Below are positions 1,935-56,452 of a DNA stretch of 64,000 bases, piece by piece. The notes beneath the pieces were generated by a model. That model saw nothing but the letters and a program-made list of their open reading frames with translations, had not been told where the DNA came from and searched no databases. The stretch's first letter is position 1; the number at the start of each line of letters is the position of its first letter. The position numbers were made by a program, and so were the translations under genes. The DNA is taken from positions 96,001-160,000 of the forward strand of contig JAEOTA010000012.1 in assembly GCA_016840085.1 (NCBI GenBank). The letters are read 5' to 3'. The stretch comes from Promethearchaeota archaeon. Its GTDB lineage: Archaea > Asgardarchaeota > Lokiarchaeia > Sigyniarchaeales > SOKP01.

Positions 1935-2828
1935 ATGTCACTTGAAAGAAGAAGAGAAGTTAAAAAAACAAAAGAAAAAGAGATTTTAGAAGATAGTTCA
2001 TTTAGGCGTGAAGATTTTAGACCATTACAAGAATTTAAAGAAGTAGAAGAAAAAGAGATAAAAGAAGAAAAAGTAATCGAGGAATTAACCGAAATTGAAA
2101 AGGACGTTCTAGATGTTGCTAAAGATATTTTAAAATTAAAACGTTATGATGCTGAATTTGAGATTGAATCACAAAGTCAAATACAAAAATATCCAATAAT
2201 CGAAAAACTCTATGCTAAATGCAGAGCGAAACTTTCTTATAGAAAAGGATATAGTAAGGAAGAAATCTTTCTTGCGATTAGAACTTTAGAGGAAAAATCA
2301 TATATTGTCACGAATGAGAGGAGAACTAAATTAGAAATACTTTCTAATGAAAAACTTATGAAGATTTTAAATTTCATTAAAGAAAATCCTGGAATCCATG
2401 CAAGAGATGAAAAAATTACGACTGAATTAGAAATAACCAGAACCCCATTTTTAAAACATGTAATGACTCTAGAACGCTTTGATCTTATTAGATCTAAGAA
2501 AATTGGTAAATCTCTTCATTATTTTTTAAGTGAAGTACCAGAAGATTATGACAAATTTAAGGTCATTTTTCTAAATCCCTTGATTCCTCAAATCTTAGAA
2601 GAATTTTTTAAAGATAAATCAATAAAAATTTCAGAAATTGGAAATACTCTTGAAATTTATTCTGGGACAATTTTATATCATGTTAAGAAATTAAAAGAAC
2701 TAAATATAGTCAAATCCACTAAAAATCAATCAAATAAGAAAATTCATCTTGTGAATGTTGAGCTATTAAAAAAATATAATGATTATTTTAAAGAACCGGA
2801 TTTCTCTAAACTTCTAAAAGGTTTATAA
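1935..2828 (+). CDS. Tandem winged-helix transcriptional regulator
   Basis: ILNFIKENPGIH...HVMTLERFDLIRSKKIG and ISEIGNTLEIYSGTILYHVKKLKELNIV wHTH patterns. Confidence 0.8.
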   Translation: MSLERRREVKKTKEKEILEDSSFRREDFRPLQEFKEVEEKEIKEEKVIEELTEIEKDVLDVAKDILKLKRYDAEFEIESQSQIQKYPIIEKLYAKCRAKLSYRKGYSKEEIFLAIRTLEEKSYIVTNERRTKLEILSNEKLMKILNFIKENPGIHARDEKITTELEITRTPFLKHVMTLERFDLIRSKKIGKSLHYFLSEVPEDYDKFKVIFLNPLIPQILEEFFKDKSIKISEIGNTLEIYSGTILYHVKKLKELNIVKSTKNQSNKKIHLVNVELLKKYNDYFKEPDFSKLLKGL

Positions 2829-3388: not shown

Positions 3389-3453
3389 TTTTTTAATCTT
3401 CTAAATAACTTTTGCTCATTAGGACGTAAAAGTCTACCAGTCTACCAGCTTTA
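3389..3453 (-). repeat. 65-bp internal fragment of the TFB gene
   Basis: Matches about 54888-54944 with one mismatch plus a tandem duplication of tctaccag (3433-3448). Confidence 0.9.
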
Positions 3454-3769: not shown

Positions 3770-5164
3770 TCACACCTTCAATGTAGTGTTATCCCTTGCT
3801 AAACCTAAAAAATAATTCCGTACGCCTTCTTTCTTGGATTTTGACATACCGCATTTTCTCAATGATAAAGGGATTATCTGTTTTATAAACCGTTTGACCG
3901 TGTCGGGAGCGACTCCCAATACTTTTGTTGCTTTTTCTTGAGAATAGGAGTCAATTCCGATATATAAAATAAAAGATAGTACAACCTTCTCTCGACGGGT
4001 AACACAAAGTAGGGCCATTCTTTTACAAACCCCCTTGATCAATTCATGAAGGATATCAGTGTTCTCTTTAATTTCTTTTATATATATGAATCGCTTTAAT
4101 AACTGAGTTATAGGGTCATAGACCATTAATATACACGCCTTCTTGGTTGTTAATCCTTGGTCTGTCTGTTTAATTCTTTTAAGCTTTTCTTTTCTACCAG
4201 CTAAGATAGGATTACCATACTTCTTTTCTCCTTTTATTGATAAATTGATCCCAAAATAGATTCTTAATCCCTTACTTCTGCCTGATTGATTTGTCGTGAC
4301 GCCAAGTCTATGTAAGTAATTTGTTAATTTTGCTTTGGTGATAGCTTTAAATCCTTTTTCCTTAAGATATATGTTTACTGCCTGTAATAATCCTTTTTGA
4401 GTAATCATTTTCTCTTCGCTTAAAATACATAACCTTTCTATGAATTTTCTTATGTTCACATCAGTTTTATCTCTTTCAATGAAGACCTCTAAATATTGAG
4501 AATCTCTCCCCGTCCAAGTAAGGAAATTTTTAAGACGGTATAAATATGTTTGTCGTGTTAACATTTTTAGTTTTTTAAAGCTCTTAGAATCAATCCAAGA
4601 TAAGACTCTTGATTTATTAAAATCTAAATCCCATTTAGAAAATTCTCCATATGATATTAGTGGCCTGTGATAACCAAATTTCCCTTTAACTTTTGAATGT
4701 TCCTCAAAAACATTACGAACATTTTGGAAAAATTTTAAAAAAGACTCTGAATCTTCCACTTCTCTCTTTTTGCCCACGATATATTTAGGGATAGCTATAT
4801 TTTTTCCCAGCCATTTAGCAAAGCTGTAAATCCTGGTTCTATAACTCTTTTGTGTCTTCTCACTTAGATTTTGAAATTCTATTGAGCTAAATCCTTTAAT
4901 CATATCATTTTCTGAAAAATCTATTCTCCAGTTGATACATCTCCCAAATTTAATTAAGGCTGATTTCCAAGTTGATCTTGATCGGTTGGAAGTAGTGATA
5001 TTTTGATCTAAAAAGGTATTTGTTTTCTTAAGATATAAAATCTTTGCCTTTTTGGAGTCTTCCTTATTGGTTTTCTTATTGAGAATTGCTTCTTCTTCCT
5101 TAATGAATTTAATATTTGATCTTTTATGATTTATTTTATTAATTCCCATTTTATCACCGTTCAT
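3770..5164 (-). CDS. Multi-domain DNA-binding protein (two integrase SAM-like repeats, D5-primase-type wHTH, terminal HTH)
   Basis: SEKTQKSYRTRIYSFAKWLG and KMLTRQTYLYRLKNFLTWTG; FIERLC...GLRIYFGINL; SQEKATKVLGVAPDTVKRF; no tyrosine-recombinase catalytic motifs seen. Confidence 0.6.
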   Translation of the reverse strand: MNGDKMGINKINHKRSNIKFIKEEEAILNKKTNKEDSKKAKILYLKKTNTFLDQNITTSNRSRSTWKSALIKFGRCINWRIDFSENDMIKGFSSIEFQNLSEKTQKSYRTRIYSFAKWLGKNIAIPKYIVGKKREVEDSESFLKFFQNVRNVFEEHSKVKGKFGYHRPLISYGEFSKWDLDFNKSRVLSWIDSKSFKKLKMLTRQTYLYRLKNFLTWTGRDSQYLEVFIERDKTDVNIRKFIERLCILSEEKMITQKGLLQAVNIYLKEKGFKAITKAKLTNYLHRLGVTTNQSGRSKGLRIYFGINLSIKGEKKYGNPILAGRKEKLKRIKQTDQGLTTKKACILMVYDPITQLLKRFIYIKEIKENTDILHELIKGVCKRMALLCVTRREKVVLSFILYIGIDSYSQEKATKVLGVAPDTVKRFIKQIIPLSLRKCGMSKSKKEGVRNYFLGLARDNTTLKV

Positions 5165-8688: not shown

Positions 8689-9592
8689 ACCCCAACTTAT
8701 TTAATAATTCAATATTGGATTTTTAGTAGCTGAGGTATGAGGATGAAAGGATCCAATATTTAGTTTTTGATCTTAGATCTTTAATAGAGTTTTAGACCAT
8801 TTTTAGACTTTAATGTAAAAAATATTACACAATGATATCCTTTTTGACGTGTTTTTGCGTTTTCCTGGCACAAGGCTATAATATAATTCCAACTTTAATA
8901 TTTATTTTTTTAAGAGTAGATTTCGGGATGATTATCCTTGTGAAAAACTTAATAATCCTGAAAAGCTATTTCAGAAAATTAAAGAAATAAATAATTGGTT
9001 TAACTAGCAAGATTAATCCATTAGACTTTTTAAGATACTATAAAATAATCTTTAATTGGTTTAGCGACAACAGACCTCCTAATAATAAGCTATCATACTA
9101 AATCATCTCAACTTATAATAGGGAATGGAATATTTAATGATAGTAAAGTACGTATACCTAAGTTAATTCTCAGAGATCGGTTATTCAATTGGGTCAAAAG
9201 AATCAGTTTTAAATTAAAAGAAGTGCTGGCTTCTTTATATTCAATAATATAGAAATCATCGTAGAATACCTTTTTAAAGAAAAGAATATAAAAAAAGTAG
9301 CAATAATAGAATGGGATTGACACCATGGCACCTTTATTTAAAAAATATGAAGGTTTTTTCCAATTAATTGAATTCTTATGAAATTTCTGTTGAGCAAAAA
9401 TTAGATAATCTTATCGATAACCTTAGAAAGGAAAAGAACTCTTCAAAAATGATAGAAGTTAATGAGAAAGCAACCACAATGATTATAAATATATTCCTGT
9501 CTCACATAATTTTTTATTTATAGATTCTATCATGGTGTTGTATACAACTTCACTTTCATGTAATAGTTCCTCATCTACGTTATTGATTGTAT

Positions 9593-10504
9593 CTATCTTA
9601 TTGATTGTTTAAAAATAGGTTTTAAAACATTAACATAATGGTCTCTTATAGAATATTCAGCGATATTAGTAGCTTCAGAAATAATCCATTGAGCTAAGAC
9701 AGGCTTCTGAAAATATTTTTTAGCCAATAGTTTGTCTGCTAAATAAATTATCCCCCCTGTTAAAATAAAGGGATTTCTACCTCCACGCTGTTTCATAGGT
9801 AACTTTTTTAATATTTCACGACACTGTATAGTCAACTTATTTTGAAATTCTCCTTTTGACCAAAGTACATTTTTCTTTTTTAATCTCTCTTCCAAATCTT
9901 TATGATTTATGACTTGATTAATTAATCTCATGAGATAATCTTCACTTTTATGAGGGAAATTCTCATCTTTAATATGATGTTTATATTCTATTCCATCTCT
10001 TAAGATTAATCTCGGATTAACTCGATGACCATAGTTTTGAAAAGCCTCAGAGATCTCCTTTATTGTAATAGGTGCATTATGATATTCTTTCCTCGCAGCA
10101 TAAAATATACAAAACCCTATTAATGAGATATTATTTACAACCTTAACCTCATTTTTGATTATTTTCCTGTAATAATACGCTGCGTTGTTTCTAATATTTT
10201 TATTGAGATTTAGATATGACGAAATTTTATTTAAAATATTAAAAATTCTGTATTCTGTTTCATGATTTTTAAGCCTTAATAATAGGTCATAATTTTTTTT
10301 TAATCTTCTAAATAATTTTTGTTCATTCGGACGTAAAAGTCTACCGGTTTTATCTTTTAAAAACTTAGTATTTCCATAATCTATATATGAACCTAATCCT
10401 CCAATAAAATCAGTACGCTCCCCTAAAGCTATATATTGTTTGCTTAAATTTCTTTCATTATTCTTATTATTTTCAGTATAAACAAAAGATGATTCTTTAT
10501 AAAA
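9593..10504 (-). pseudogene. tfb: 5'-truncated TFB copy lacking start codon and Zn ribbon
   Basis: Colinear with 54185-55096, no indels, about 41 mismatches in 912 bp by manual count; frame open from FYKESSF to stop; TAA at 10505-10507 immediately upstream. Confidence 0.92.
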
Positions 10505-10600
10505 TTATATTGAACCTATTGATTTGAATCTCTGTATAACTTGTAGGAAAGAAAGAAAACAAGATATTATTAAAAAGTTTAAAAGCTTATTACCTTCGGA

Positions 10601-11203
10601 TTAAAACTTCGCTAATTCTTTGCTTACCTTAAATGAAAAAACGTCATTAACATGGTTTATTAATTCTCTCATAACTCTTTCAAATTCTTTCTTATTTATA
10701 ATTTCTTTATTCTCATCTAAAGATATTAATTTGCAAATTGGATCTAGTCCAATAAGGTATTTATCCAGAATATAGAGTTCTGAAGATCTATACGTTGCTT
10801 TACCCATATCAAGAGGGTGTACATCTTCTTCTTCCTTCTGATTGATCTCAATTCCAATTTTAATCAAAATCTCGGGAAATTTTTGAGATATAAAATGAAT
10901 AAAAGACATTGAACCTGAAAATCTATAATAACCTCTCTTTTTAGTATTCATAAGGTATTTTAGATAACCCTTTACTCTTTTAATAATTTGAATAACTATA
11001 TCTTTTTCATCCCTTTCTTTCTCTTTTCTTTCAATCCCTTTTATAATAAAAGGTAAAATAAGAGCTGTTATAATGCTGAATTGAGTTGTTAGGTTTTGAA
11101 ACAAGGATATAGGAAAAATTATAGATAATATAATTAATATTATTACTATAATAATTAGAGAAAAAACAACCTTATTCTTTAGTAATTCTTTATAGCTTAT
11201 CAT
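10601..11203 (-). CDS. Hypothetical protein with two N-terminal TM helices
   Basis: 200-aa ORF with hydrophobic N-terminus. Confidence 0.7.
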   Translation of the reverse strand: MISYKELLKNKVVFSLIIIVIILIILSIIFPISLFQNLTTQFSIITALILPFIIKGIERKEKERDEKDIVIQIIKRVKGYLKYLMNTKKRGYYRFSGSMSFIHFISQKFPEILIKIGIEINQKEEEDVHPLDMGKATYRSSELYILDKYLIGLDPICKLISLDENKEIINKKEFERVMRELINHVNDVFSFKVSKELAKF

Positions 11204-11442
11204 GTCTTAAATTCCTTATTAAAACTCTTATATGAAGTTTTTCCTCTATAATATCTGCGAACATTCATATGATAGAAAATATTATTACATTCAGAACATC
11301 CTAAGATTTGTATTCTATCACTTTCATCAAAAATTTCAGGTTGTATACCTTCAAAATTAATTTTTATTGCTATTACTTGTTTCTTACATACAGGACATCT
11401 AGCCATCATTCTATATTTATAAAAGCTTATTCTTGAATTCAA
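11200..11442 (-). CDS. Small Zn-ribbon protein
   Basis: CPVC...CSEC; ATGA overlap with the next gene. Confidence 0.65.
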   Translation of the reverse strand: MNSRISFYKYRMMARCPVCKKQVIAIKINFEGIQPEIFDESDRIQILGCSECNNIFYHMNVRRYYRGKTSYKSFNKEFKT

Positions 11443-11513
11443 AATTAATACCTTAATACCTTAATTAATTATTAGATGGTAAAAGCTCTCTTCTTTTCCT
11501 ATATAAGCTTCTA

Positions 11514-11572
11514 GGGTAGCCGATTTTCTGATTCTTTACTTATCACCTGACGGGTTCAGTTCCCGCTACCTG
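11514..11572 (+). ncRNA. tRNA-like element without a D-arm (degenerate tRNA or remnant)
   Basis: GGGTAG/CTACCT acceptor-like pairing, CGGG-TTCAGTT-CCCG T-arm, TGAT/ATCA central stem. Confidence 0.3.
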
Positions 11573-13151: not shown

Positions 13152-13730
13152 TTACCTCTTAAATATATAAAAAAAATTATGGCCTTTAATTTCAATAATT
13201 TGGATTTCAGCTCCATGGAAGATGATGATCTCTTTCTCATCTAACCCGTAAGTAAATTCACAATTTTTTAATAAAGTTAGAGTCCAATTAACATCTCTCT
13301 TAAAAATTGTCCCAGCTATTAGATATTCATTATTTAAATTCATCTCATTATGTGAATGCAAAGCATCCTTACTCCATACCCACAATTCTGGAAAATTTCT
13401 TTGAAACATGAAATATTCATTTTCTCTTAAATCCCTGAGAAAGACTTTTACATTAGGTATATCCAAAAAACTATAAATCTTAAATGGCTCAGGAAAGTAA
13501 TGGTATCTGTCAATTAAAACATTTACTTGTTCTGTAATCTCATCTTCAAGCGTCTTCATAGCTTCAAATTTGGATATTTTTTTAGTATAAACAAGAGCTT
13601 CTACATGGGTCTTGATTTGATCTGGATAAAATTTCTTCCATTCTTTTAAAAATTGAGGTAGATAATCTTTTATCTCTTCTGGATTTTGCACAATTATATC
13701 TAATAATTTTGGATTTTTGTCTTTTACCAT
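13152..13730 (-). CDS. Putative ADP-ribosyltransferase-fold protein (paralog of 55850-56452)
   Basis: FKIY, WVWSKD, DVNWTLTL, YGLDEKEIII (ExE). Confidence 0.45.
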   Translation of the reverse strand: MVKDKNPKLLDIIVQNPEEIKDYLPQFLKEWKKFYPDQIKTHVEALVYTKKISKFEAMKTLEDEITEQVNVLIDRYHYFPEPFKIYSFLDIPNVKVFLRDLRENEYFMFQRNFPELWVWSKDALHSHNEMNLNNEYLIAGTIFKRDVNWTLTLLKNCEFTYGLDEKEIIIFHGAEIQIIEIKGHNFFYIFKR

Positions 13731-17516: not shown

Positions 17517-19697
17517 TCATTTTCTTGTTGCGCTCTCCCAATCATTCCAAAATCTTTCTAATTTTTGAAGCCCGAATTTACTAATAAAGGAGATTTCATC
17601 AAAAACCTCAACTAACGAGGCTTTTGAATATCTCTCTATCTTTGCCATCATCTCAAAAAATTGTTTATAAATGTTGAGATAGCGCCAAAAAGTTTGCTTG
17701 TCCAATTTTTCATGTTTAGTAAGTTTTTGTATAGCTTTACAATCATAAAGGTTTTCTCCTTTTAATGCGTCCCAATCATCCGTATCAGGATTATATTGAA
17801 AGAGAGTATCAATATCACCAGAGGAGTTGATTTCAGCTACTTGAATGACTTTTCTCTTGCTGGTGTTGGAATCTTTTTTCATCAAAACAATTAAGTCTAA
17901 ATCATTAAAGCATGAAGAATCAATCTTAAAATGGTGTAAAAAGCGATTAATCAGAGATTCGATATTATTACAGTGAATTGTTTGGAATCCTCTTAATCCT
18001 GCTGAAAGACAATGAAACATGGCTTTAGCTTCTTCTTCAGTTAAAATTTCTCCAAGATAAATTATATCAGGAGATCGATGTAATAATTTCTTTATTAGAT
18101 TACTTTTTGAATATTTTATATCTACATCATCGTCTAGTGAATCTACTTTATATTTTAATTGATGTTTGTCTAAATCGTCTTGGTTTGACGATTCGATAGC
18201 ATTTTCTATGTATATTTTTCTAAATTCTTTAGGCGCTATTAAATCCAATGCATTAATTAAAGTCGTTTTCCCAGTATCAGTCTCACCCGTCACAGTAATA
18301 TTATTTCTTTTTAAGATGTTAAAATAGAGAAAAGAGGCAATGAGGGGATTCAAAGTGTTATTCTGAACTAAATCTTGAATAGTAAAAATATTTTTATTAA
18401 GTTTTCTTATATCTAAAGAAAATCCCGATGCATGAATAGGAGCTATATCTACCGCGATTCTGCAAAAGAAAAGGTTATTCTTCATAACAAATTTAATGCT
18501 TGGATTAGAATAGTCTAACCGTTGCCCGCTATAAAAACGGCAAAAAGTTTTTAATCTTTCAATCTCGTTCTCATTAAATCTGATATCTGTACGACACCTA
18601 CCATGTATACGATGATTAATATAGACATATGATATATCAGAATCTAAAAAAATCTCTTCTATGAAGTCATCAATCAAGAAAGGAAATAATTTTGCAAGGT
18701 CTATAGCATCAAAAGTAGCTAATAAACTTATCCTCTCTTTCTCGTCATCAGAGACATGATACTTTCCGCTAATATAATCAATTCCTTCATTTTTATATTT
18801 TTGAATAAGTTCTTCAAAGGTTATTAAACCCTCAATCTTAAATGAATCGATAAGATGATTCTTGACGTCTTTTGCAATTTTTTTAAAGAACTGTTCTTCG
18901 CCTTTAGTCTGAAAAGTGAGATTAACTTCATATAACTTCTCAAATGCATGCGTATCATAAATTCGGATCTTAAATAATTGATGTTCCCCTATTAAATAAT
19001 TATCAATTAATCCAAATCTTTCTTTTGAATGAAGATCCTTTTTTGTCTTCTTTTGTGATTGACTAGAAATATTTTGAGTTGAAAATAACTCTCTATGAAA
19101 TCGTAAATAAGAAGGATATTGATTATGTTTTTTACAGAAGGTTATATATTCATTAATAATTCTTTGTTCTTTTAAGACTCTTAGAAAAGTCGTAAATTTA
19201 GCCTTTAATTCTTTTTGACATGTAAAACAAGCAGCATTATTTACTTCTTTACTCTTTATCAGTTTGTATCTCATTTGAATAAGCTCGAAGAGTCCAATTG
19301 GATCATGAAAATCGATCTTGGCAGGACGTACACCTGAATAAAAATCAGAAAACAGAACACATCCCATATCGTTTTTAATACATCCTTTACTGAAATCGAA
19401 ATCTATGAGCTCAAAAGAATCTTTAATCTGTTTAGTCTTTTTGAAATATTCCAAGAATAACTCAATACTATCTTTCGTTATTGTAAACTTCTCAGTTCCC
19501 AACGATAAAGATTCAAATTTTTTTCCTTTAATCTTATGTAATATCGCTAAGAAACATTGGATACATTTTGTATTTTTTAATATTACCCCTGTATATTTTG
19601 GACAATTCTTACAATCAACTATAACCAATCGTTCTTTTTTACCTTGAAAATTCTCTCTTTCTTGAAATATGACTAAATCTGATGTTTTAAGGGTCAT
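17517..19697 (-). CDS. Type II/IV secretion ATPase (VirB11/CpaF/FlaI family) with Cys-rich N-terminus
   Basis: Walker A GETDTGKT, Asp box IENAIE, Walker B RSPDIIYLGEI, His box FQTIH, SLDIRK. Confidence 0.92.
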   Translation of the reverse strand: MTLKTSDLVIFQERENFQGKKERLVIVDCKNCPKYTGVILKNTKCIQCFLAILHKIKGKKFESLSLGTEKFTITKDSIELFLEYFKKTKQIKDSFELIDFDFSKGCIKNDMGCVLFSDFYSGVRPAKIDFHDPIGLFELIQMRYKLIKSKEVNNAACFTCQKELKAKFTTFLRVLKEQRIINEYITFCKKHNQYPSYLRFHRELFSTQNISSQSQKKTKKDLHSKERFGLIDNYLIGEHQLFKIRIYDTHAFEKLYEVNLTFQTKGEEQFFKKIAKDVKNHLIDSFKIEGLITFEELIQKYKNEGIDYISGKYHVSDDEKERISLLATFDAIDLAKLFPFLIDDFIEEIFLDSDISYVYINHRIHGRCRTDIRFNENEIERLKTFCRFYSGQRLDYSNPSIKFVMKNNLFFCRIAVDIAPIHASGFSLDIRKLNKNIFTIQDLVQNNTLNPLIASFLYFNILKRNNITVTGETDTGKTTLINALDLIAPKEFRKIYIENAIESSNQDDLDKHQLKYKVDSLDDDVDIKYSKSNLIKKLLHRSPDIIYLGEILTEEEAKAMFHCLSAGLRGFQTIHCNNIESLINRFLHHFKIDSSCFNDLDLIVLMKKDSNTSKRKVIQVAEINSSGDIDTLFQYNPDTDDWDALKGENLYDCKAIQKLTKHEKLDKQTFWRYLNIYKQFFEMMAKIERYSKASLVEVFDEISFISKFGLQKLERFWNDWESATRK

Positions 19698-23730: not shown

Positions 23731-26355
23731 TCAATCTGTTTTAGCAAAAAAATTATCATAAGATAATTCCTTTCTTTTTTTACGTTTGTAAACAAAATCT
23801 TCAGTTTTGAAAAGATACGAATATGAACCGTCTTTTGCCATACAAATCCGTTTATCTAAACGAGAAATTAATTCTTGTTCTTTTAAATCATTAGTGAAAT
23901 TCTGAGTGCTTGCAATAGACTGCTGAAATAAGAAGAACAAACAAGGAATATTGATTACAGATTCGTATAACCCCACGCTTGTTTGATCAGCTAATATATG
24001 CCCCACTCCTTTCGAGCGAAACTCACGAATTAACTGTGAAAAAATCTTCCTGAAAGAATCCATTGCAATATAATCATCATCTTCAGGATTAACATTTTTA
24101 GGCTCTTCTGTTAATTGATGTGCTTCATCTAATACTATAATTTGTTTTAGAGTGTCCTGTTCTTTATCTGGAATAAGGGCCCTAAACATTTGTAATATTA
24201 ATGTTGCTAACAATCGCTTTTCAGTAGGTTTGCATCCTGCTAAATTAATCATTACTTTTCTTCCGTTATATACAACGTCCTCAAACCATTTAGGTATTTT
24301 ATCTTCTGTTCTTAATGCATAGTTTATCAAAGGAGTTGAGAAAAGTTGAGTATATCTATGTTTTATTGCTTGCACTAATCTCATCTGAAGCCGTGTATCA
24401 TAAGGATTTTTATCTAAATACCGTAAAAGCTCACTAAAAAGATGTTTGATATGCTTTGGTACTTTGAAATAAGTGTTATAATATAATAACAGTGTATTGT
24501 ATATTGCATCAACAACAACATTCTTTAAACCAAGTGAATAAACAAGGCATTCTGATATTTCAAATAGACAACGGAGAAAATTATCGTTAAAAACAGCATA
24601 CGGAATGTGAAGTCTCTCGTCTCCCCAATCTAAGCAATAATCTGAAGGATATAATTCAGATTGTTTTCCTTTAGCAAGATTAATTATCAATATACCTACA
24701 TTTAGATTATATTTAATGAAATGATTCAATATAACACCTATTAAATATGTTTTTCCAGTATCAGGTTTACCGATCATTAGAACGGAACGTCTTAATGACT
24801 CAGTTGAGATTGTTGCTTTTTTCTCAGAAACGATTCCGTCCATGATATGGTTTCCAATGATAATTTCAGAAGGATCTCCTTTTGGTATTTTCTTAAGGTC
24901 AAAACTCTGAAGTTCATAAATAAACTTTTTAGGTATAGGTAATTCTTTAGCAAGATCAAAATCGAGTAAATAAGAAGTGATATACTGCCCAAAGTAAAAG
25001 TTTAATGTATAGATATCGATAAATACACCTTTTCTTACTCGCTTTAGTTTTGCGGGTCGTTTATCATTTCTTCCTGCAATTGCCAAACTTTCTAATATGC
25101 CTTCGATCATATTTTTTCGATTTTTTTCCAGGGGAACATTTTTGAAACTAACAAAAATTTTTACTTTTTGCAACTCATCTTGCCACATTCGTGAAAAATT
25201 CATACGTTCTTCCTTATCGCGATATTCAAGAAAGTTGGCTTTTTCTCTTATTCGGATAATCTTTTTCTTTCGTCCTTTTTTCCATAATATATATAGATTT
25301 ATATCTTCAGAAGTAGTTCTGAAGGCATTAATAAAACTCTGTATAATTTTAATCTTTTCTATATATGGTGGTCTCGGAAGCTTAATTTCATAAAAATAAT
25401 CATGATTTACTGAGAATAATTCGTTCCGAGTCATGGGAATTATATTTATTTCTGCATCCAATCCACGATATTTGACCTGTAATTCTGCTTTAAGGGTCTG
25501 TCCTCTTTTAATTGCTAATTTTTCTGAATGTGAATTAAAAAAAAATGAAAACTTGAAATCGTTATGGCATTTAACTTCAATCCCATACACACTGTTATTT
25601 CCCAATAAATCCTTTATCCAACTCTCATAATAATCATATTGATATTTTTTATTGTCTGATTCATGTTCTAAGGCTACTTGAGTAATTGTGATTTTGCTTT
25701 GCCAAAATAAGATCTTTTTAAGATGTGAGTTAGAACTTGCTCCTTTCAAGAAACACAATTGAATACTGTGAAAATACGAATATAATAATCTGTAAACTGG
25801 TTCATAAAAAAACAGAGTTAAAAAAGATTGAAGAATAATTGAATAAATAACAACTTCAATAAAGCCTTGAATAGTGGCAAAATAAAATAAAAACGACAGC
25901 GAAATAACACCACTTAGAAATTTGATGATAAATTCTATTTCTGGTGTAAATACTATTAGAAAAATAATAGTGAGTATTAAAATAGTAATAGAACTGTAAA
26001 AGAAATCCCCATTTATAGTTAAAACTATGATATGACAAAAAAAGGCGATAATTAAAGGATATACCCTTGCTAAATCGACTCTTTTATTACTATTATTTAA
26101 GAAATAAAGAGCTATACAAAATGTAAATATTAGAGCCCTTTCACATTCAAAGATCGTTATAAATGTTGGATCATCATAATTCATAATATGAATGCGTATT
26201 ATTGAAAACAGAATTACGAAAAGAAAGAGTATAAACAAAAGAAAAATGCGACTCCTCCCTTTTTCTACTAGAAATGAATGGATAAAACTAACGATTAGAA
26301 TAATTATAAGAAGGATAGCAATAGAATCAAATAAAGTAAATATCATATCATACAC
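23731..26355 (-). CDS. Membrane-anchored HerA/FtsK/VirB4-VirD4 superfamily ATPase
   Basis: About 6 N-terminal TM helices; Walker A GKPDTGKT; Walker B IVLDEAH; REFRSKGVGHILADQ. Confidence 0.88.
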   Translation of the reverse strand: MYDMIFTLFDSIAILLIIILIVSFIHSFLVEKGRSRIFLLFILFLFVILFSIIRIHIMNYDDPTFITIFECERALIFTFCIALYFLNNSNKRVDLARVYPLIIAFFCHIIVLTINGDFFYSSITILILTIIFLIVFTPEIEFIIKFLSGVISLSFLFYFATIQGFIEVVIYSIILQSFLTLFFYEPVYRLLYSYFHSIQLCFLKGASSNSHLKKILFWQSKITITQVALEHESDNKKYQYDYYESWIKDLLGNNSVYGIEVKCHNDFKFSFFFNSHSEKLAIKRGQTLKAELQVKYRGLDAEINIIPMTRNELFSVNHDYFYEIKLPRPPYIEKIKIIQSFINAFRTTSEDINLYILWKKGRKKKIIRIREKANFLEYRDKEERMNFSRMWQDELQKVKIFVSFKNVPLEKNRKNMIEGILESLAIAGRNDKRPAKLKRVRKGVFIDIYTLNFYFGQYITSYLLDFDLAKELPIPKKFIYELQSFDLKKIPKGDPSEIIIGNHIMDGIVSEKKATISTESLRRSVLMIGKPDTGKTYLIGVILNHFIKYNLNVGILIINLAKGKQSELYPSDYCLDWGDERLHIPYAVFNDNFLRCLFEISECLVYSLGLKNVVVDAIYNTLLLYYNTYFKVPKHIKHLFSELLRYLDKNPYDTRLQMRLVQAIKHRYTQLFSTPLINYALRTEDKIPKWFEDVVYNGRKVMINLAGCKPTEKRLLATLILQMFRALIPDKEQDTLKQIIVLDEAHQLTEEPKNVNPEDDDYIAMDSFRKIFSQLIREFRSKGVGHILADQTSVGLYESVINIPCLFFLFQQSIASTQNFTNDLKEQELISRLDKRICMAKDGSYSYLFKTEDFVYKRKKRKELSYDNFFAKTD

Positions 26356-27975: not shown

Positions 27976-29502
27976 TCAAATCAATTCAATCCCAAGAACA
28001 CTAAAGAAGGAAAGAAAGAATGCTAACGCAAACACAATATCACTGAGAATAAGAATTATATAATATGACTTGTATTTTGTAATTTTGAGAAAATAAAAAC
28101 ATGTAATCGAATTGCATGCAAAAAATGTAAGAAACATAACGATTGCATTAATAATATTTGTCATAGAGCGATAGTCAGGAATAGTCATATTAGCAAAATT
28201 TCTTAGATTAAATGTGAATATTGCAAAAAAAGGCAACATTCCGCATATAGCCCCCGTTATCACGGGTAAGAGCAAGATGAAAGCAAGTACTTTGAACCTT
28301 TGAGATCGTATTTCCCCTTCAAACTTATCTTCTAACTTTCGATGTTTATCAATCAAACTTAAAATCTCAAAGATCTTTTCGGAAGATAAATACGCACTTT
28401 CTTCAACCATGATCTTTATCGTATCCAGGATTAAAATATATCTTAAATTCTTCAGGATAAATTTTAAGGAATCTATCATTTCATTGAACGAGCAAGTAAG
28501 TTTTCCCAACTGTATAGCATGATTACCAACAGTATGTTCTAATAGCTGAAATTGAGACTTTTTTTCAGAATAATAATTGATGAACGCTCTTTCAGGAGAG
28601 ATATTGTTGTTTAGCCGAATTGCAAATCCTTCTAAAAATTTTAAAAACTGTTCGAATGTTCTTTTTTCCATTTTTGTTCCTTCTAATATCCCTATAAAGA
28701 AAATATTAATCTTTACAAGTCTACGGCAGAGATATCTAAGTAAGAATAAAAAAATTGGTACAATTACAATTACAAGAAATAAGGGAATTTGCATCATTAA
28801 TACAAAAAAGATTACGCCAATAGGGAAAAATATACCCACAAAAAACACCACCGATAGTTTTCCCTCTAGCCCTTTCAGATAAGTTTTAAATTGCTTTTCT
28901 AATTCATAATCTCTTACACTTTCTTGAATACTAGATGTTTTAAAATGACTAGTAATTAATTTCTGCAAATATAAATTAAAATCGGATGAAGGGGTTAATA
29001 CTTTTTCCAATTCTTTTTCAGGACTTTTCCCCCGCTGCACCTTATCTAAAATTTCTTTGAATAATCCTGAGAACACCAAATCTAACCCACTCATCAACTT
29101 AATAAAGCTTAAACATAAATCCGATCTTGGAGTAAGGACTTTTTGCAAGAGTGAGAAATTAATTTTTATGAAATATATTGAAGCGTTAATCGACACCTCA
29201 TCTTTATTGATTCTTTTGTAAAGATATAGATTGAAATTATACGCCACTATTACTGCAATACAGAGAGAACAGACACTATTAATCAAAATATCATTTCCTA
29301 ACAATAGAAAAGAGATTAATATTGAACCGATAAGCGAGATTATGAAAATAATGGTTGTTGCTTTATCGATTGCCGATTTACTAACTCCATATTCTCGATA
29401 CAGTTTTCTATAAACATCATTGATATCTTTAAAACTAATTTTGGGAATCTGGTATCTCTCGAATCTATTACAAAATCTTACAAAATCTTGAATATCAGTC
29501 AA
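27976..29502 (-). CDS. TadC/FlaJ-like (T2SS F family) membrane platform protein
   Basis: Two repeats of a cytoplasmic domain plus TM block; VQRGKSPEKEL and LNNNISPERAF motifs. Confidence 0.8.
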   Translation of the reverse strand: MTDIQDFVRFCNRFERYQIPKISFKDINDVYRKLYREYGVSKSAIDKATTIIFIISLIGSILISFLLLGNDILINSVCSLCIAVIVAYNFNLYLYKRINKDEVSINASIYFIKINFSLLQKVLTPRSDLCLSFIKLMSGLDLVFSGLFKEILDKVQRGKSPEKELEKVLTPSSDFNLYLQKLITSHFKTSSIQESVRDYELEKQFKTYLKGLEGKLSVVFFVGIFFPIGVIFFVLMMQIPLFLVIVIVPIFLFLLRYLCRRLVKINIFFIGILEGTKMEKRTFEQFLKFLEGFAIRLNNNISPERAFINYYSEKKSQFQLLEHTVGNHAIQLGKLTCSFNEMIDSLKFILKNLRYILILDTIKIMVEESAYLSSEKIFEILSLIDKHRKLEDKFEGEIRSQRFKVLAFILLLPVITGAICGMLPFFAIFTFNLRNFANMTIPDYRSMTNIINAIVMFLTFFACNSITCFYFLKITKYKSYYIILILSDIVFALAFFLSFFSVLGIELI

Positions 29503-31529: not shown

Positions 31530-32786
31530 TTGGGAAAGGAACATAATAAAGGGTTGTTGTGTGGTAGGTTTTTTGACTCTGTATTGAGAAGAGACTCTTT
31601 AATTAAAGAAGAAAAATTTTTAAGTATTGATTATCCTACAAGAATATTACATCGAGACGACAAATTAAATGAATTAGCTCTTCTTTATTCGTCTATGATA
31701 ACTCATGCAGGGTCTAGAGGCATAAATCAGATTGTATTAGGCGAGCGAGGGATTGGAAAAACGGCAACAGTAAGATATTTCGGCACAGAGTTAGAGAATA
31801 CAGCTTTAAGAAAAGGTATTAACCTTAAATACCTTCATATTAATTGTCGAAAAGAACGAACAGAATATAAAGCCTTAGTGAAAATTAACAAGCTTATTAA
31901 TAATCAGATTGCTAGTCGGGGTTATTCCCCACAAGATTTATTAGATTTTATCTATGATCATCTTGAAAAGGAAAATATGTTTCTTTTATTAGTTCTAGAT
32001 GAGCTGGATTATTTCTTAGTGAAGAATATCGATTTTCTTTATTCATTATTACGCATGTATGAAGATATAAATTCATCTTTACCTATTAAGAGAATATCGA
32101 TTATAGGCATCTTAAGGGAAATTAGTTTTTCGAAAGATAAATTCAACAGTATCAGTTCTTATTTTCCGGTCAACAGTATCGTATTTGATCGATATACAAA
32201 ACAAGAGACTTTCGATATTTTAAAGCATAGAGCGGAAATTAGCCTTAAGAAAGGCGTAATGAGCGATGAAATTATTGAAAAAATAGCAGATATTATTTTT
32301 AGGGGCGGTGATATAAGATGTGGTCTGAATCTCTTATGGCACGCTACTAAAATCGCCGAGAATAAAGGCTTAAGCGAGCTTACTTTAGGTTGTGTAAATT
32401 GTGCTTGTCAAGAGTTAGTGCCTTTTACCATTAAAGATTCATTATCAAACATGTCAGAACATAAACTATTATTTCTTTTTAGTATAATAGAACGTTCACG
32501 TAGAAATGGAAACACTGTCAGTTCTTTAGCTGAAGTTCTTAGTGAATATAGAGAGATCTGTAAAAGCACAGGAATATCTCCACATTCATATTCACAATTA
32601 TGGAATTATGCTCGCGATTGTGAATTGGACGAGATATTAAAATTAAAGGTGTGTGGTAAGGGCTTTAAAGGGCGTAAAACATTTGTAGAAATGCCCGACG
32701 TTCCCTTAATTAGATTAAGTGAAAACATCGCTAGCATATTACAATCGAAAGGTATAGCAGTAATAGAAAACGCAAAGGTAATTTGA
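31530..32786 (+). CDS. cdc6: Orc1/Cdc6 replication initiator
   Basis: ILHRD, Walker A GERGIGKT, HINCR, Walker B LVLDELD, GGDIR, C-terminal wH GKGFKGR. Confidence 0.95.
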   Translation: MGKEHNKGLLCGRFFDSVLRRDSLIKEEKFLSIDYPTRILHRDDKLNELALLYSSMITHAGSRGINQIVLGERGIGKTATVRYFGTELENTALRKGINLKYLHINCRKERTEYKALVKINKLINNQIASRGYSPQDLLDFIYDHLEKENMFLLLVLDELDYFLVKNIDFLYSLLRMYEDINSSLPIKRISIIGILREISFSKDKFNSISSYFPVNSIVFDRYTKQETFDILKHRAEISLKKGVMSDEIIEKIADIIFRGGDIRCGLNLLWHATKIAENKGLSELTLGCVNCACQELVPFTIKDSLSNMSEHKLLFLFSIIERSRRNGNTVSSLAEVLSEYREICKSTGISPHSYSQLWNYARDCELDEILKLKVCGKGFKGRKTFVEMPDVPLIRLSENIASILQSKGIAVIENAKVI

Positions 32787-33177: not shown

Positions 33178-33496
33178 TTATTAATATCGGGGTAATTCAA
33201 AATGAGCATATTAGAAGATTTAGAATATATTAAAAAACAATATGAAAAATTAATCAAGATTTTCCCTGAAGATCAAACATTAAAAAGGTATTATAAAAAA
33301 GTTTCACACTCAATAGAAAAAATACAAAATGATAAGCCCATTTAGGCCTAAGATTTAATCTTTTTTTTTCTCTTTTATCTTCTACTTTGAATGATGTCTC
33401 TCCATGTCTAAACAGGGAGCTTTTATATATGATATAAAGGATATGATAATCATTGAATAATCATATAATTATATCTTATAATCGAGGTGTGTTATT

Positions 33497-34531
33497 ATAA
33501 ATTCCAATATTTTAGATAATGGAATACCCATATGTCCTGAATGTGGAGGAAATTTAATTGAAACTGTATCTGGGACGGTTTGTGAAAATTGTGGATTAAT
33601 CATAGACGAAAAAATCTATAAACCAAGCTCATTCACCTTTGATGACCATGAATCTATTAGATCTCTAAATAAACAATACGTATCTTTAGGATATAGGCCA
33701 GACTTCGTAGGAGGCCTAGGCTCTTTCATCGATTATGAGCATTCTAAGTTCTTAAGAGACAAAACAAGGAAACTTTTATCACCAGAAAAACAAAAATTAT
33801 ATCGTAGGCTGAAAATTAACTTCGATCAGAATGTACGGATTAAAAACAAAGAGACAGAGTATCGGATGTTTAATATCTTAAACAAAATAAGCCCCTTACT
33901 AAATTTAAATCTCAGTGCCCGAAATACAGCCACATATTTCTATAGGAAAATCATAAAAGCAGAGAAGGAAGCAGGTAAAAAAATAATAAATAATATAACG
34001 TTGCTTACGTTTTGTGTCTTTTATGCGATACGTCAAGAAAATCATAACGCTCCCATTACGGTGGATGAAGTAGTAAAAGCTTTTAATAGTTTTGGACATA
34101 GAGTAAGTGCAAGACTAATCTTAAGGGACGGTATTACATATAGAAATCATATTCGTAAAGAAACATATCATCATAAGAGTGAAGATTATCTTATTAGACT
34201 TATTGATGCCATAACAAAATATAAACACTTAAAAAAGAGATTAATGAAAAAAGGATGTCTATGGTCTATATTTGAATATAGAAATAAGCTAACAGAGATA
34301 AGTAGAAGAGTTTTAAAAGGGCTCTCTCAATGGGAACGCAGGGGGCGTAATCCCTTTATTATGGCTGGAGCAGTTATATATCTTGCAGATAAGTTATTAG
34401 CTCAAAAATTTATGATTAAACCAATTCTTACCCAGCAAATAATCTCCGTACAAACCTCTATTGCTGAATATTCTATACGAGATCATTATGTAAACGTATT
34501 GAAACCATTAAATTTACAATTAAAGGATTAG
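33497..34531 (+). CDS. tfb: Divergent full-length TFB (TFIIB); ATA/ATT start inferred
   Basis: Frame open upstream of 33866 through CPECGG...CENCGL; no in-frame ATG/GTG/TTG; GAGGTG at 33484-33489; GRNP and IAEYSIRDHY cyclin-repeat motifs. Confidence 0.88.
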   Translation: MNSNILDNGIPICPECGGNLIETVSGTVCENCGLIIDEKIYKPSSFTFDDHESIRSLNKQYVSLGYRPDFVGGLGSFIDYEHSKFLRDKTRKLLSPEKQKLYRRLKINFDQNVRIKNKETEYRMFNILNKISPLLNLNLSARNTATYFYRKIIKAEKEAGKKIINNITLLTFCVFYAIRQENHNAPITVDEVVKAFNSFGHRVSARLILRDGITYRNHIRKETYHHKSEDYLIRLIDAITKYKHLKKRLMKKGCLWSIFEYRNKLTEISRRVLKGLSQWERRGRNPFIMAGAVIYLADKLLAQKFMIKPILTQQIISVQTSIAEYSIRDHYVNVLKPLNLQLKD

Positions 34532-54178: not shown

Positions 54179-54184
54179 ATGTAT

Positions 54185-55213
54185 CTACCTTATTGATTGT
54201 CTAAAAATAGGTTTTAAAACATTAACATAATGGTCTCTTATAGAATATTCAGCGATATTAGTAGCTTCAGAAATAATCCATTGAGCTAAGACAGGTTTTT
54301 GAAAAAATTTTTTAGCTAATAGTTTGTCTGCCAAATAAATAATCCCCCCTGTTAAAATAAAGGGATTTCTACCTCCACGCTGTTTCATAGGTAACTTTTT
54401 TAATATCTCACGACTCTGTATAGTCAATTTATTCTGAAATTCTCTTTTTGACCAAAGTACATATTTCTTTTTCAATCTCTCTTCCAAATCTTTATGATTT
54501 ATGACTTGATTAATTAATCTCATGAGATAATCTTCACTTTTATGAGGGAAATTCTCATCTTTAATATGATGTTTATATTCTATTCCATCTCTTAAAATTA
54601 ATCTAGGATTAACTCGATGACCGTAGTTTTGAAAAGCCTCAGAGATCTCCTTTATTGTAATAGGTGCATTATGATATTCTTTCCTCGCAGCATAAAATAT
54701 ACAAAACCCTATTAATGAGATGTTATTTACAACCTTAACCTCATTCTTGATTATTTTCCTATAATAATACGCTGCATTGTCTCTAATATTTTTATTGAGA
54801 TTTAGATATGACGAAATTTTATTTAAAATATTGAAAATCCTGTATTCTGTTTCATGATTTTTAAGCCTTAATAATTGATCATAATTTTTTTTTAATCTTC
54901 TAAATAACTTTTGCTCATTCGGACGTAAAAGTCTACCAGCTTTATCTTTTAAAAACATAGAATTTTCGTAATCTATATATGAACCTAATCCCCCAATAAA
55001 ATCAATACGCTCCCCTAAAGCTATATATTGTTTGCTTAAAGTTCTTTCATTATTCTTATTATTTTCAGTAGAAACAAAAGATGATTCCTTAAAAAAAATA
55101 TCAATCACTAATCCACATTTAGTACAAATCTTTTCAAAGCTATTATGGATTAAATTTCCACCACATTCAGGACAAGATTCATTTTCATTATTATTTATTT
55201 TGTCGGTTACCAT
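54185..55213 (-). CDS. tfb: Transcription initiation factor TFB (TFIIB) paralog, full length
   Basis: CPECGG...CTKCGLVI Zn ribbon, GGLGSYI linker, two cyclin repeats with GRNP. Confidence 0.95.
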   Translation of the reverse strand: MVTDKINNNENESCPECGGNLIHNSFEKICTKCGLVIDIFFKESSFVSTENNKNNERTLSKQYIALGERIDFIGGLGSYIDYENSMFLKDKAGRLLRPNEQKLFRRLKKNYDQLLRLKNHETEYRIFNILNKISSYLNLNKNIRDNAAYYYRKIIKNEVKVVNNISLIGFCIFYAARKEYHNAPITIKEISEAFQNYGHRVNPRLILRDGIEYKHHIKDENFPHKSEDYLMRLINQVINHKDLEERLKKKYVLWSKREFQNKLTIQSREILKKLPMKQRGGRNPFILTGGIIYLADKLLAKKFFQKPVLAQWIISEATNIAEYSIRDHYVNVLKPIFRQSIR

Positions 55214-55549
55214 TATCCCCCCATATTTTAAATCTAAAGAATAAAAACAGCTCGGATTTTATCTTAATTTTGTGAAAAGTGAATTCACTCACAGAGAATT
55301 CTATTTCATATTAATAGAATAAAAAACTTCAGAGAAGGAGAGATAATTAGAAGTAAAATTTAGGTTATTTTGCAAAATATCTTCTAAAAAGATTAAATTA
55401 ATTCATTAAATCTTTGATAAGTCTTAAAATGTCGTCAATTTCTTCACAATTTATTAATCAGGTCCCACACCTCTATTTAAGATAGTATTTGATTATTCCA
55501 AATCCAAATATGCATCAACAAGTAATTCCTTTATGAAATACTTCTGAAA

Positions 55550-55850
55550 TTAAATTTCTCTTTTTCTGTATTTTTTCTTAAATAATTTAATCAATTGCTT
55601 TATATCTTTTTTAATTTTATCTTGATCTTTTTCTGATTTAGCTGATTTGAATTCAATTTCACCAATAACATCAGTGTTTTTAAAAACATCTCGGATCAAA
55701 TTATTAGTATCTTGTTTGATTACTAATATAATAGGCTTTTTCAAACTCTTCGCGTAAAGAACTTTTTCTATTAATTCCACCCTTTCAAAAAATAGGTTCG
55801 AGACCAACGAATATCCAATATGATGATTCTTCTAAATCTCTTTTCCAGCT
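55550..55850 (-). pseudogene. Possible frameshifted TIR-like fragment
   Basis: DLEESSYWIF / VSNLFF...LYAKSLKKPIILV split across two frames. Confidence 0.3.
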
Positions 55851-56452
55851 CAATTTATCTCCCTCTTTTCCCTAGGAAATACTTTTAAAAAATTATCTCC
55901 CTCAATTTGGATAATCTGTATTTTTTTGTCTTGAAAAAGGATAACTTCTTTTTCTTCTAATCCATATGCTAATTCACAATTTTTTAATAAAGTTAAGGAC
56001 CAATTAATATATTCTTTGTATGCTATTCCTGTTATTTTATACTCATCAGTAACATTTTGATTATTAGGAGGACCATAAAAATCTTTATCCCATGTCCAAA
56101 ATTCTGGGAATTCACCACCACTCAAGACAGAGAGATCTTCGTCTCCTTTATGATTCTTAAGAAAACCGTGTTTGCCAGATATTTCCCAAAAAGTATAAAT
56201 TTTAAAAGGATCTGGAAAAGATTGAAATGTGTTTATCAAAAAATTAAATTGACTGGTAATTTCCTCCTCAAATTTTTTCATTGCTTCTAATTTATGGATT
56301 TTCTTAGTTTCAGTGAGGGTTTCAATATGTGTTTTAATCTGATCTGGATAAAACTTCTTCCATTCTTTCAAAAATAAATTTAGATACTCTTTCAATTCTT
56401 CTGATCTTAGCACTTTTAAAGAAAGGAAATTTAGTTTCAAATATTCCATCAA
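55850..56452 (-). CDS. Putative ART-fold protein, paralog of 13152-13730
   Basis: Shared FLKEWKKFYPDQIKTH, FKIY, WTWDKD, INWSLTLLKNCE, YGLEEKEVIL. Confidence 0.5.
   Translation of the reverse strand: MMEYLKLNFLSLKVLRSEELKEYLNLFLKEWKKFYPDQIKTHIETLTETKKIHKLEAMKKFEEEITSQFNFLINTFQSFPDPFKIYTFWEISGKHGFLKNHKGDEDLSVLSGGEFPEFWTWDKDFYGPPNNQNVTDEYKITGIAYKEYINWSLTLLKNCELAYGLEEKEVILFQDKKIQIIQIEGDNFLKVFPREKREIN

Follow-up and report, generated by a model that had tools for sequence, protein, structure and literature searches.

A long direct repeat of a TFB-like gene in a Lokiarchaeal mobile island as a candidate footprint of gene-anchored insertion

In a 64,000-nucleotide stretch of contig C69 (the window) from a Promethearchaeota (Lokiarchaeia) MAG, G000, a TFB-like gene is present once intact and once, some 44.6 kb away, without its 5′ part, which raises the questions of how the pair arose and what it means for transcription in the host. 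The two copies form an ungapped direct repeat of 917 bp (9588-10504 versus 54180-55096, offset 44,592), both on the minus strand, and are 95.5% identical, with 41 substitutions and neither an indel nor a stop.

9588-10504, minus strand: left repeat copy, a 5′-truncated TFB-like remnant of resident ‘b’ type that spans codons 40-342 and a further 5 bp
54185-55213, minus strand: intact 342-aa TFB-like gene, nt 1-114 resident-type, foreign ‘a’ type from nt 115

The right repeat copy is the 3′ 89% of the intact gene, while the remnant starts seven codons past the last zinc-ribbon cysteine (C33) and loses homology 5 bp past the stop codon. An earlier, sequence-only reading of this DNA had recognised the repeat and its end just past the stop, both of which hold, but had set the other boundary at 10507; positions 10505-10507 are an in-frame TAA outside the repeat, which ends at 10504. 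That reading also suggested that both alleles were functional until recently and proposed the ratio dN/dS between the copies as a check. The ratio is 0.13 (dS 0.165, dN 0.021), and 26 of the substitutions are synonymous and 15 non-synonymous where ~25% synonymous changes are expected under neutrality, so the two alleles did diverge while functional, under purifying selection. Both remnant junctions are bridged with no differences by contigs of two source-study runs at flank depth (contigs that are not independent of the assembly), and at all 16 listed sites, which extend across the longest identical runs, an allele from another study has the letters of the intact copy, in support of the phasing of the copies; on these grounds an assembly artefact or contamination was ruled out.

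The gene is an element-borne copy of a divergent, Lokiarchaeia-specific TFB-like paralogue and not the TFB of the host. The intact protein has an N-terminal C4 zinc ribbon (C14, C17, C30 and C33 invariant), which the remnant lacks, and two cyclin repeats of the TFIIB core fold; its best Foldseek matches are TFIIB/TFB chains (E 4e-8) and its PDB profile matches are 1ais_B and 1d3u_B. The canonical B-reader (EWRxF) and repeat-1 RGRS motifs are absent, with ESSFV and VVNNIS in their place, the C-terminal helix at the position of the BRE-reading HTH reads IAEYSIRDHY as against VTEVTxRNRY, and the protein scores 53.5 bits in NCBIfam against a cut-off of 384, with Pfam TFIIB also under its cut-off. 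Homologues are found in 120 of the 161 genomes of the class, mostly single and at a conserved native locus with roadblock/GTPase genes, a tRNA gene, cdc6 and Tad genes. G000 has its native orthologue, undamaged, on contig C81, where it clusters with the copy of the sister species in the tree, while the window’s two copies and L071, a full-length allele of a sister species (~93% ANI), form a separate, well-supported clade; because tree support among the genus orthologues is weak, we name no donor. A further four canonical-type TFBs are encoded elsewhere in G000. Given these, the native orthologue and the element-borne nature of the window gene, the basal factor of the host has therefore not been swapped, contrary to the earlier suggestion that each integration exchanges the promoter-recognising cyclin core of a TFB.

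Exact-protein look-ups for 54185-55213 and 10601-11203 gave no match, and neither did an exact DNA scan of metagenomes or a search of viral contigs; a protein scan returned only native-locus orthologues, at 71-77%. G049 has an intact TFB-like ORF of 264 aa (L094:9686-10480) in which ribbon and core are kept and most of the linker is missing. This in-frame loss after the ribbon was considered as a recurrence of the break and rejected, since the gene is 55% identical and of different structure. Directly downstream of the native TFB-like gene lies an intron-containing tRNA (L039:6390-6502; G000:C81), for which the ARAGORN anticodon call varies per genome and whose intron-less relatives are tRNA-Glu(CTC).

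The TFB-like copies in the window sit in an island of lower GC (27% versus 30%) whose DNA between the repeats carries the following features.

10505-54179: DNA between the repeats, with mobility, defence and cargo genes
13152-13730, minus strand: paralogue (52%) of 55850-56452, so that one lies upstream of each repeat copy
17517-19697: VirB11/TadA ATPase
23731-26355: membrane HerA/VirB4-like ATPase
27976-29502: TadC-like protein
31530-32786: Cdc6
33494-34531, plus strand: third, older TFB-like copy, 58% identical, with the ribbon intact and no ATG/GTG/TTG before it

Its predicted gene content suggests a large island of conjugative type, like the archaeal TFIIB-encoding ICE (VirB4-like protein, pilus ATPase, TadC, TFIIB homologue and replication initiator), the VirB4/HerA and TadC assignments being weak, from sub-threshold Pfam matches or homology with the native locus. 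The island is incompletely assembled. No tyrosine recombinase was found on C69, PF00589 matches in G000 being confined to contigs C49 and C19, and G000 has no resolvase-family serine recombinase (PF00239). The protein at 3770-5164 has integrase SAM-like domains and no match to a catalytic domain; behind these, visual inspection suggests a wHTH and a terminal helix like that of TFB. In the third TFB-like copy a GAGGTG motif stands shortly before ATT/ATA codons, a possible non-canonical start. Similar elements with the same TFB-like gene occur in G023, G008, G158 and G090, and the neighbours of the genes adjoining it differ in every strain. Past the window, at window-equivalent 63634-67314, C69 carries copies of roadblock/GTPase genes (74-89% identical, one of them split); as these derive from upstream of the native TFB-like gene, the elements capture blocks of that locus.

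Alleles from outside this genome bear on which copy is resident. In nt 118-468, L071 agrees with the remnant at 21 of the 22 informative sites, and in nt 492-1026 it sides with the intact copy, at 17 of 19; none of 2000 permutations gave so strong an allele switch. Between the intact copy itself and L071 the divergence rises from 1.3% upstream of nt 115 to 6.8% in nt 115-468 (Fisher p=3.5e-4, with the boundary at nt 115 chosen post hoc), and by this jump the foreign patch of the intact copy begins where the remnant begins: the switch at nt 115 lies three bases before the remnant start at nt 118, a closeness that rests on 3-4 alleles. L072 is remnant-like over its 197 overlapping bases, and the allele of run X6 is remnant-like in 10295-10504 (3 differences, versus 14 for the intact copy) and intact-like in 9610-10317. 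All outside alleles thus have the promoter, then the ribbon, then the ‘b’ type of the remnant, and the sequence upstream of the intact copy is shared with them.

55214-55497, minus strand: upstream 204-284 bp shared with full-length alleles of other sediments, ~99% over the proximal 195 bp

The simplest reading of these alleles would make the remnant a resident tail that was displaced, and the intact gene a hybrid: the first 114 nt of the resident allele head the intact copy, and what follows from nt 118 has ended up as the remnant, at a distance of 44.6 kb. An arrangement of hybrid gene, insert and displaced 3′ part fits the allele data, and to this extent the earlier proposal of a split gene with an element-supplied 3′ part is borne out. 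The crossovers in the outside alleles lie elsewhere (nt ~310-336 and 468-492), which points to ordinary homologous exchange, and as L071 and the X6 allele carry the 3′ part of the intact copy, extra allelic recombination must be assumed. The full-length ‘b’-headed alleles (L071, L072 and that of run X6) have flanks other than those in the window, and no empty site of the exact strain was found among the alleles compared. In the sister species the TFB-like cassette abuts an SRP54 gene (L071:825-1921), corresponding to the eIF5A/SRP54 intergenic position in G000.

Around the remnant, and farther left in the window, several joints and fragments can be recognised.

10503-11542, minus strand: module M, containing a 200-aa gene (10601-11203), with the in-frame TAA at 10505-10507
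9573-9608, minus strand: 18-bp near-tandem duplication (16/18) of the gene’s last bases, at the 3′ edge of the remnant
9043-9495: 110-175-bp pieces of genes in a patchwork, with short shared words at the joins
3389-3453, minus strand: 65-bp piece from inside tfb (nt ~270-326, ‘a’ type) that contains an 8-bp tandem duplication (3434-3453)

The remnant meets module M at a 2-bp (TT) microhomology with tfb nt 118-119, and the homology of a second, 81% identical copy of module M farther along the contig (window-equivalent 72694-73731) stops exactly at the junction base. No shared att core was found at the two repeat junctions, where there is only the TT microhomology and nt 115-117 differ between the copies. 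For an 18-bp near-tandem duplication such as that at the 3′ edge the genome background is 2e-4 per position, and the patchwork includes a deacetylase piece and a RING-like gene piece (downstream of tfb in sister elements). The short tandem duplications at fragment joints (9573-9608, 18 bp; 3434-3453, 8 bp) resemble templated repair scars. As the depth of run X6 drops at the tfb fragment 3389-3453, its 52-65 bp were considered as an att core; this was rejected, there being no second fragment at that position in 53 genus genomes and no recombinase, and relatives placing the island edge inside a winged-helix gene. Downstream of the intact copy, a TGT with CAAC repeats after it resembles the end of a Tn7-like element; as no transposase or matching end was found, this was likewise dropped.

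The displaced-3′-end footprint recurs at other genes of G000 and of the lineage, and is a common one in these archaea. At least five further co-oriented pairs of the form gene, insert, 3′ remnant are present in G000, on single contigs or by synteny, with remnants of ~230-530 bp and 78-87% protein identity.

G000: pairs at C19:37536/41935, C40:36837/40008, C56:9433/6461, C85:14897/28392 and C85:89919/95958
G023: a further pair at C7:133659/148271

In two of the five G000 pairs tested the remnant, not the end of the full gene, is native (87-90% versus 79% to G024), and in the remaining three relatives gave no sign of which copy is native. The displaced ends of all five lose homology at the stop codon, so the end of the TFB-like remnant 5 bp past its stop is ordinary. 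In G067 (C22:11207-32813) five remnants of one gene are stacked, their starts differing. The same geometry at so many genes suggests a single-step route.

We lean, on balance, towards the repeat being the footprint of a single ~44.6-kb insertion into an accessory TFB-like gene, anchored by homology, finished illegitimately and independent of a recombinase. Incoming DNA of a sister element would have carried an ‘a’ allele ~3-7% diverged together with the pilus/VirB4/Cdc6 segment and would have entered the 5′ part of the gene by homologous recombination, crossing over no farther in than nt 114; the other end of the incoming DNA, module M, would then have been joined to the displaced resident tail via the 2-bp microhomology, so that the hybrid gene stays intact and the tail is left without ribbon, start codon or selection. 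One homologous junction, one microhomology junction and no recombinase are what homology-facilitated illegitimate recombination is recognised by, while the paralogous gene upstream of both repeat copies counts against this insertion, being expected for two sister modules. Those paralogues, together with the full Tad/VirB4/Cdc6 set between the repeats and the abundance of short deletion joints around the remnant, would instead suit a history already offered as an alternative in the sequence-only reading and still live, which we regard as possible though clearly the weaker candidate: Campbell-type integration of a 44.6-kb circle with a full-length allele, by a crossover in nt 84-114 or upstream, and then a separate deletion that took the promoter and ribbon of the second copy. 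It needs, however, a second event whose end happens to fall no more than ~35 bp from the allele switch, a span of ~4% of the 917-bp repeat, and the geometry shared with many other genes speaks for one step.

It is doubtful that two sister modules arrived independently and that the remnant is no more than the biggest among many captured fragments, the repeat then delimiting no single event. The 65-bp fragment at 3389-3453, TFB-like fragments in other genomes with varied ends (75-156, 50-173, 241-338 and 85-231) and neighbourhoods that change from strain to strain are all in keeping with such captures, which nevertheless leave unexplained why the intact copy switches from resident to foreign at nt 115. 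Slightly more doubtful still is the main model of the sequence-only reading, site-specific integration just past the zinc ribbon, repeated across strains and swapping the cyclin core each time. The geometry would fit, and the winged-helix gene of the island (below) is indeed split recurrently, with a long replacement half, so the lineage is capable of such events; yet the contig has no recombinase, the junctions share no core and other alleles cross over elsewhere, and when recurrence of the same breakpoint was sought, as that reading had advised, a break of the TFB-like gene at codon 39-40 was found in none of 160 other genomes, the fragments there ending at other positions.

The left edge of the island lies within another gene, at which a comparable split is seen.

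1935-2828, plus strand: conserved winged-helix gene in which the island has its left edge, with an element-supplied 3′ half from codon 122 (junction 2295-2311)
Loci of the winged-helix split and its traces: window 1935-2828; G000:C4:5857-6384; L111, L119, L092 and L166

The native 3′ half is found at G000:C4:5857-6384, 5′-truncated (residues 122-297) and 88% identical to G024, as against 77% for the foreign 3′ half in the window. In G024, G018 and G049 the orthologue of C4:6399 comes next after the winged-helix gene or one gene farther on, and in G000 this neighbour is preceded by the truncated native half, the C69-C4 link resting on synteny and not on assembly. The same split is present in G067, G008 and G122 (another genus), making four genomes of two genera including G000, with the split at codon 121-122, a 530-bp replacement half and remnant starts no more than 6 nt apart. 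Of 135 genomes, four carry a 17-bp element-type junction motif (G000, G008, G122 and G046); G046 has no insert at the winged-helix site and retains nothing but a short donor patch, likely an excision scar. A relic of the split is also seen in G069.

Near the remnant of the winged-helix gene is encoded a large protein (G000:C4:7-4188; L111:556-3369 in G008), an 84-91% identical homologue of which is found only in the four split genomes, its gene directly beside the remnant in G008 and G122 and 1.7-2.8 kb away in G000 and G067; more distant homologues (33-37%) are not next to remnants. Its model (pLDDT 60) matches I-DmoI-type LAGLIDADG folds (E 1.5e-4) and its C-terminus looks like a PD-(D/E)XK nuclease, suggesting that this protein may cut the winged-helix site. 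Tentatively, then, Lokiarchaeal islands may use an integrase-free route that replaces half of a gene: at the winged-helix gene the LAGLIDADG and PD-(D/E)XK nuclease would cut the empty allele at codon 122 and repair would install a 530-bp, 78% identical half along with a >100-kb island, which could later be excised to leave a short donor patch, and the TFB split would have come about by this route too, either undirected or at an earlier time. We found no description of such a nuclease-linked split of a winged-helix gene in the literature searched.

The frame of the TFB-like remnant is, as had been noted from its sequence, still open, from codon 40 to codon 342 and the stop (912 bp), with no stop inside it, an in-frame TAA directly upstream and the first ATG/GTG/TTG at codon 231.

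9593-9931, minus strand: 112-aa ORF covering just the second cyclin repeat and HTH, the remnant’s sole ORF to begin at a canonical start

For a frame of this length, the chance of staying open is P ~0.86 with three random changes and 15% with all 41. Between the remnant and L071, 2 of 351 bases differ in the common segment nt 118-468, where the sole change private to the remnant is E83G, at a near-invariant residue. We infer that the open frame reflects youth, and that the remnant is a young pseudogene without ribbon, start codon or selection. Its proposed role as a repressor, a claim about function independent of origin by which the remnant would be translated from a near-cognate start and act as a ribbon-less dominant-negative TFB, is most improbable, because a stop precedes the frame and the first canonical start comes only at codon 231. 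Near-cognate ATA/ATT codons are available at 64, 73 and 80 in the open frame, and the third TFB-like copy, with no canonical start before its ribbon yet with the GAGGTG motif, indicates that odd starts may occur in the family. Against this stand a T-rich tract after the upstream gene, an openness no greater than chance predicts, the E83G change, and the lack in this family of the B-reader and repeat-1 GRS motifs of canonical TFB. A bacterial promoter scan gave chance level, its model being bacterial and not applicable to archaea.

Homology-facilitated illegitimate recombination has a homologous anchor at one end and an illegitimate join at the other. It is cited for Acinetobacter, Streptococcus pneumoniae and Pseudomonas stutzeri (PMC6382021). 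The TFB-like repeat shares with it the anchor, the microhomology join, the absence of a recombinase and the addition of foreign DNA beside the anchor, and differs in that ~44.6 kb would have been added, the anchor gene restored as a hybrid and delivery probably conjugative. An intact hybrid gene, an insert and a displaced 3′ remnant in direct orientation are also left by thaumarchaeal iMGEs such as NitEve-E2, which integrate into protein-coding genes with 3′ replacement (PMC6563490), and by e14 and phage 21, which integrate into E. coli icd (PMC12540744). These, however, use an integrase or casposase and a short att/TSD near the 3′ end (13 bp in NitEve-E2), while the TFB-like repeat duplicates 89% of the gene, with no recombinase and no recurrence. 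TFIIB genes are backbone genes of thaumarchaeal ICEs (PMC6563490), and here too TFB homologues lie beside VirB4/TadC/pilus ATPases and Cdc6 on mobile DNA; unlike in those elements, the TFB is a Lokiarchaeia-specific divergent paralogue with a chromosomal orthologue by a tRNA gene and cdc6, and no integrase was found on C69.

TFB3 of Sulfolobales keeps its zinc ribbon. A truncated TFB paralogue described as an activator (PMC6101594), it resembles the remnant as a partial TFB proposed to be a regulator, but is conserved and expressed with its ribbon, whereas the remnant has neither ribbon nor start codon and occurs in one genome. The winged-helix split, for its part, recalls free-standing homing endonucleases (I-DmoI-type LAGLIDADG) in having a LAGLIDADG fold by a fixed insertion point and an altered occupied allele; unlike them, the linked protein is fused to PD-(D/E)XK, acidic residues are not evident in its LAGLIDADG motifs, and it is linked to a large island and a 530-bp replacement gene half and not to an intron or intein.

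The TFB-like repeat is thus a long, young case of a known kind of footprint, that of a mechanistically ordinary gene-anchored insertion, and shows neither sigma-like swapping of the host’s basal factor nor a new repressor. Read in this way, it shows Lokiarchaeia gaining tens of kilobases without integrases, with the anchor gene kept as a hybrid and the alleles of an accessory TFB-like gene reshuffled. The nuclease-linked split of the winged-helix gene, if true, would be a homing-like move of a giant island between genera, and would matter more than the TFB repeat.
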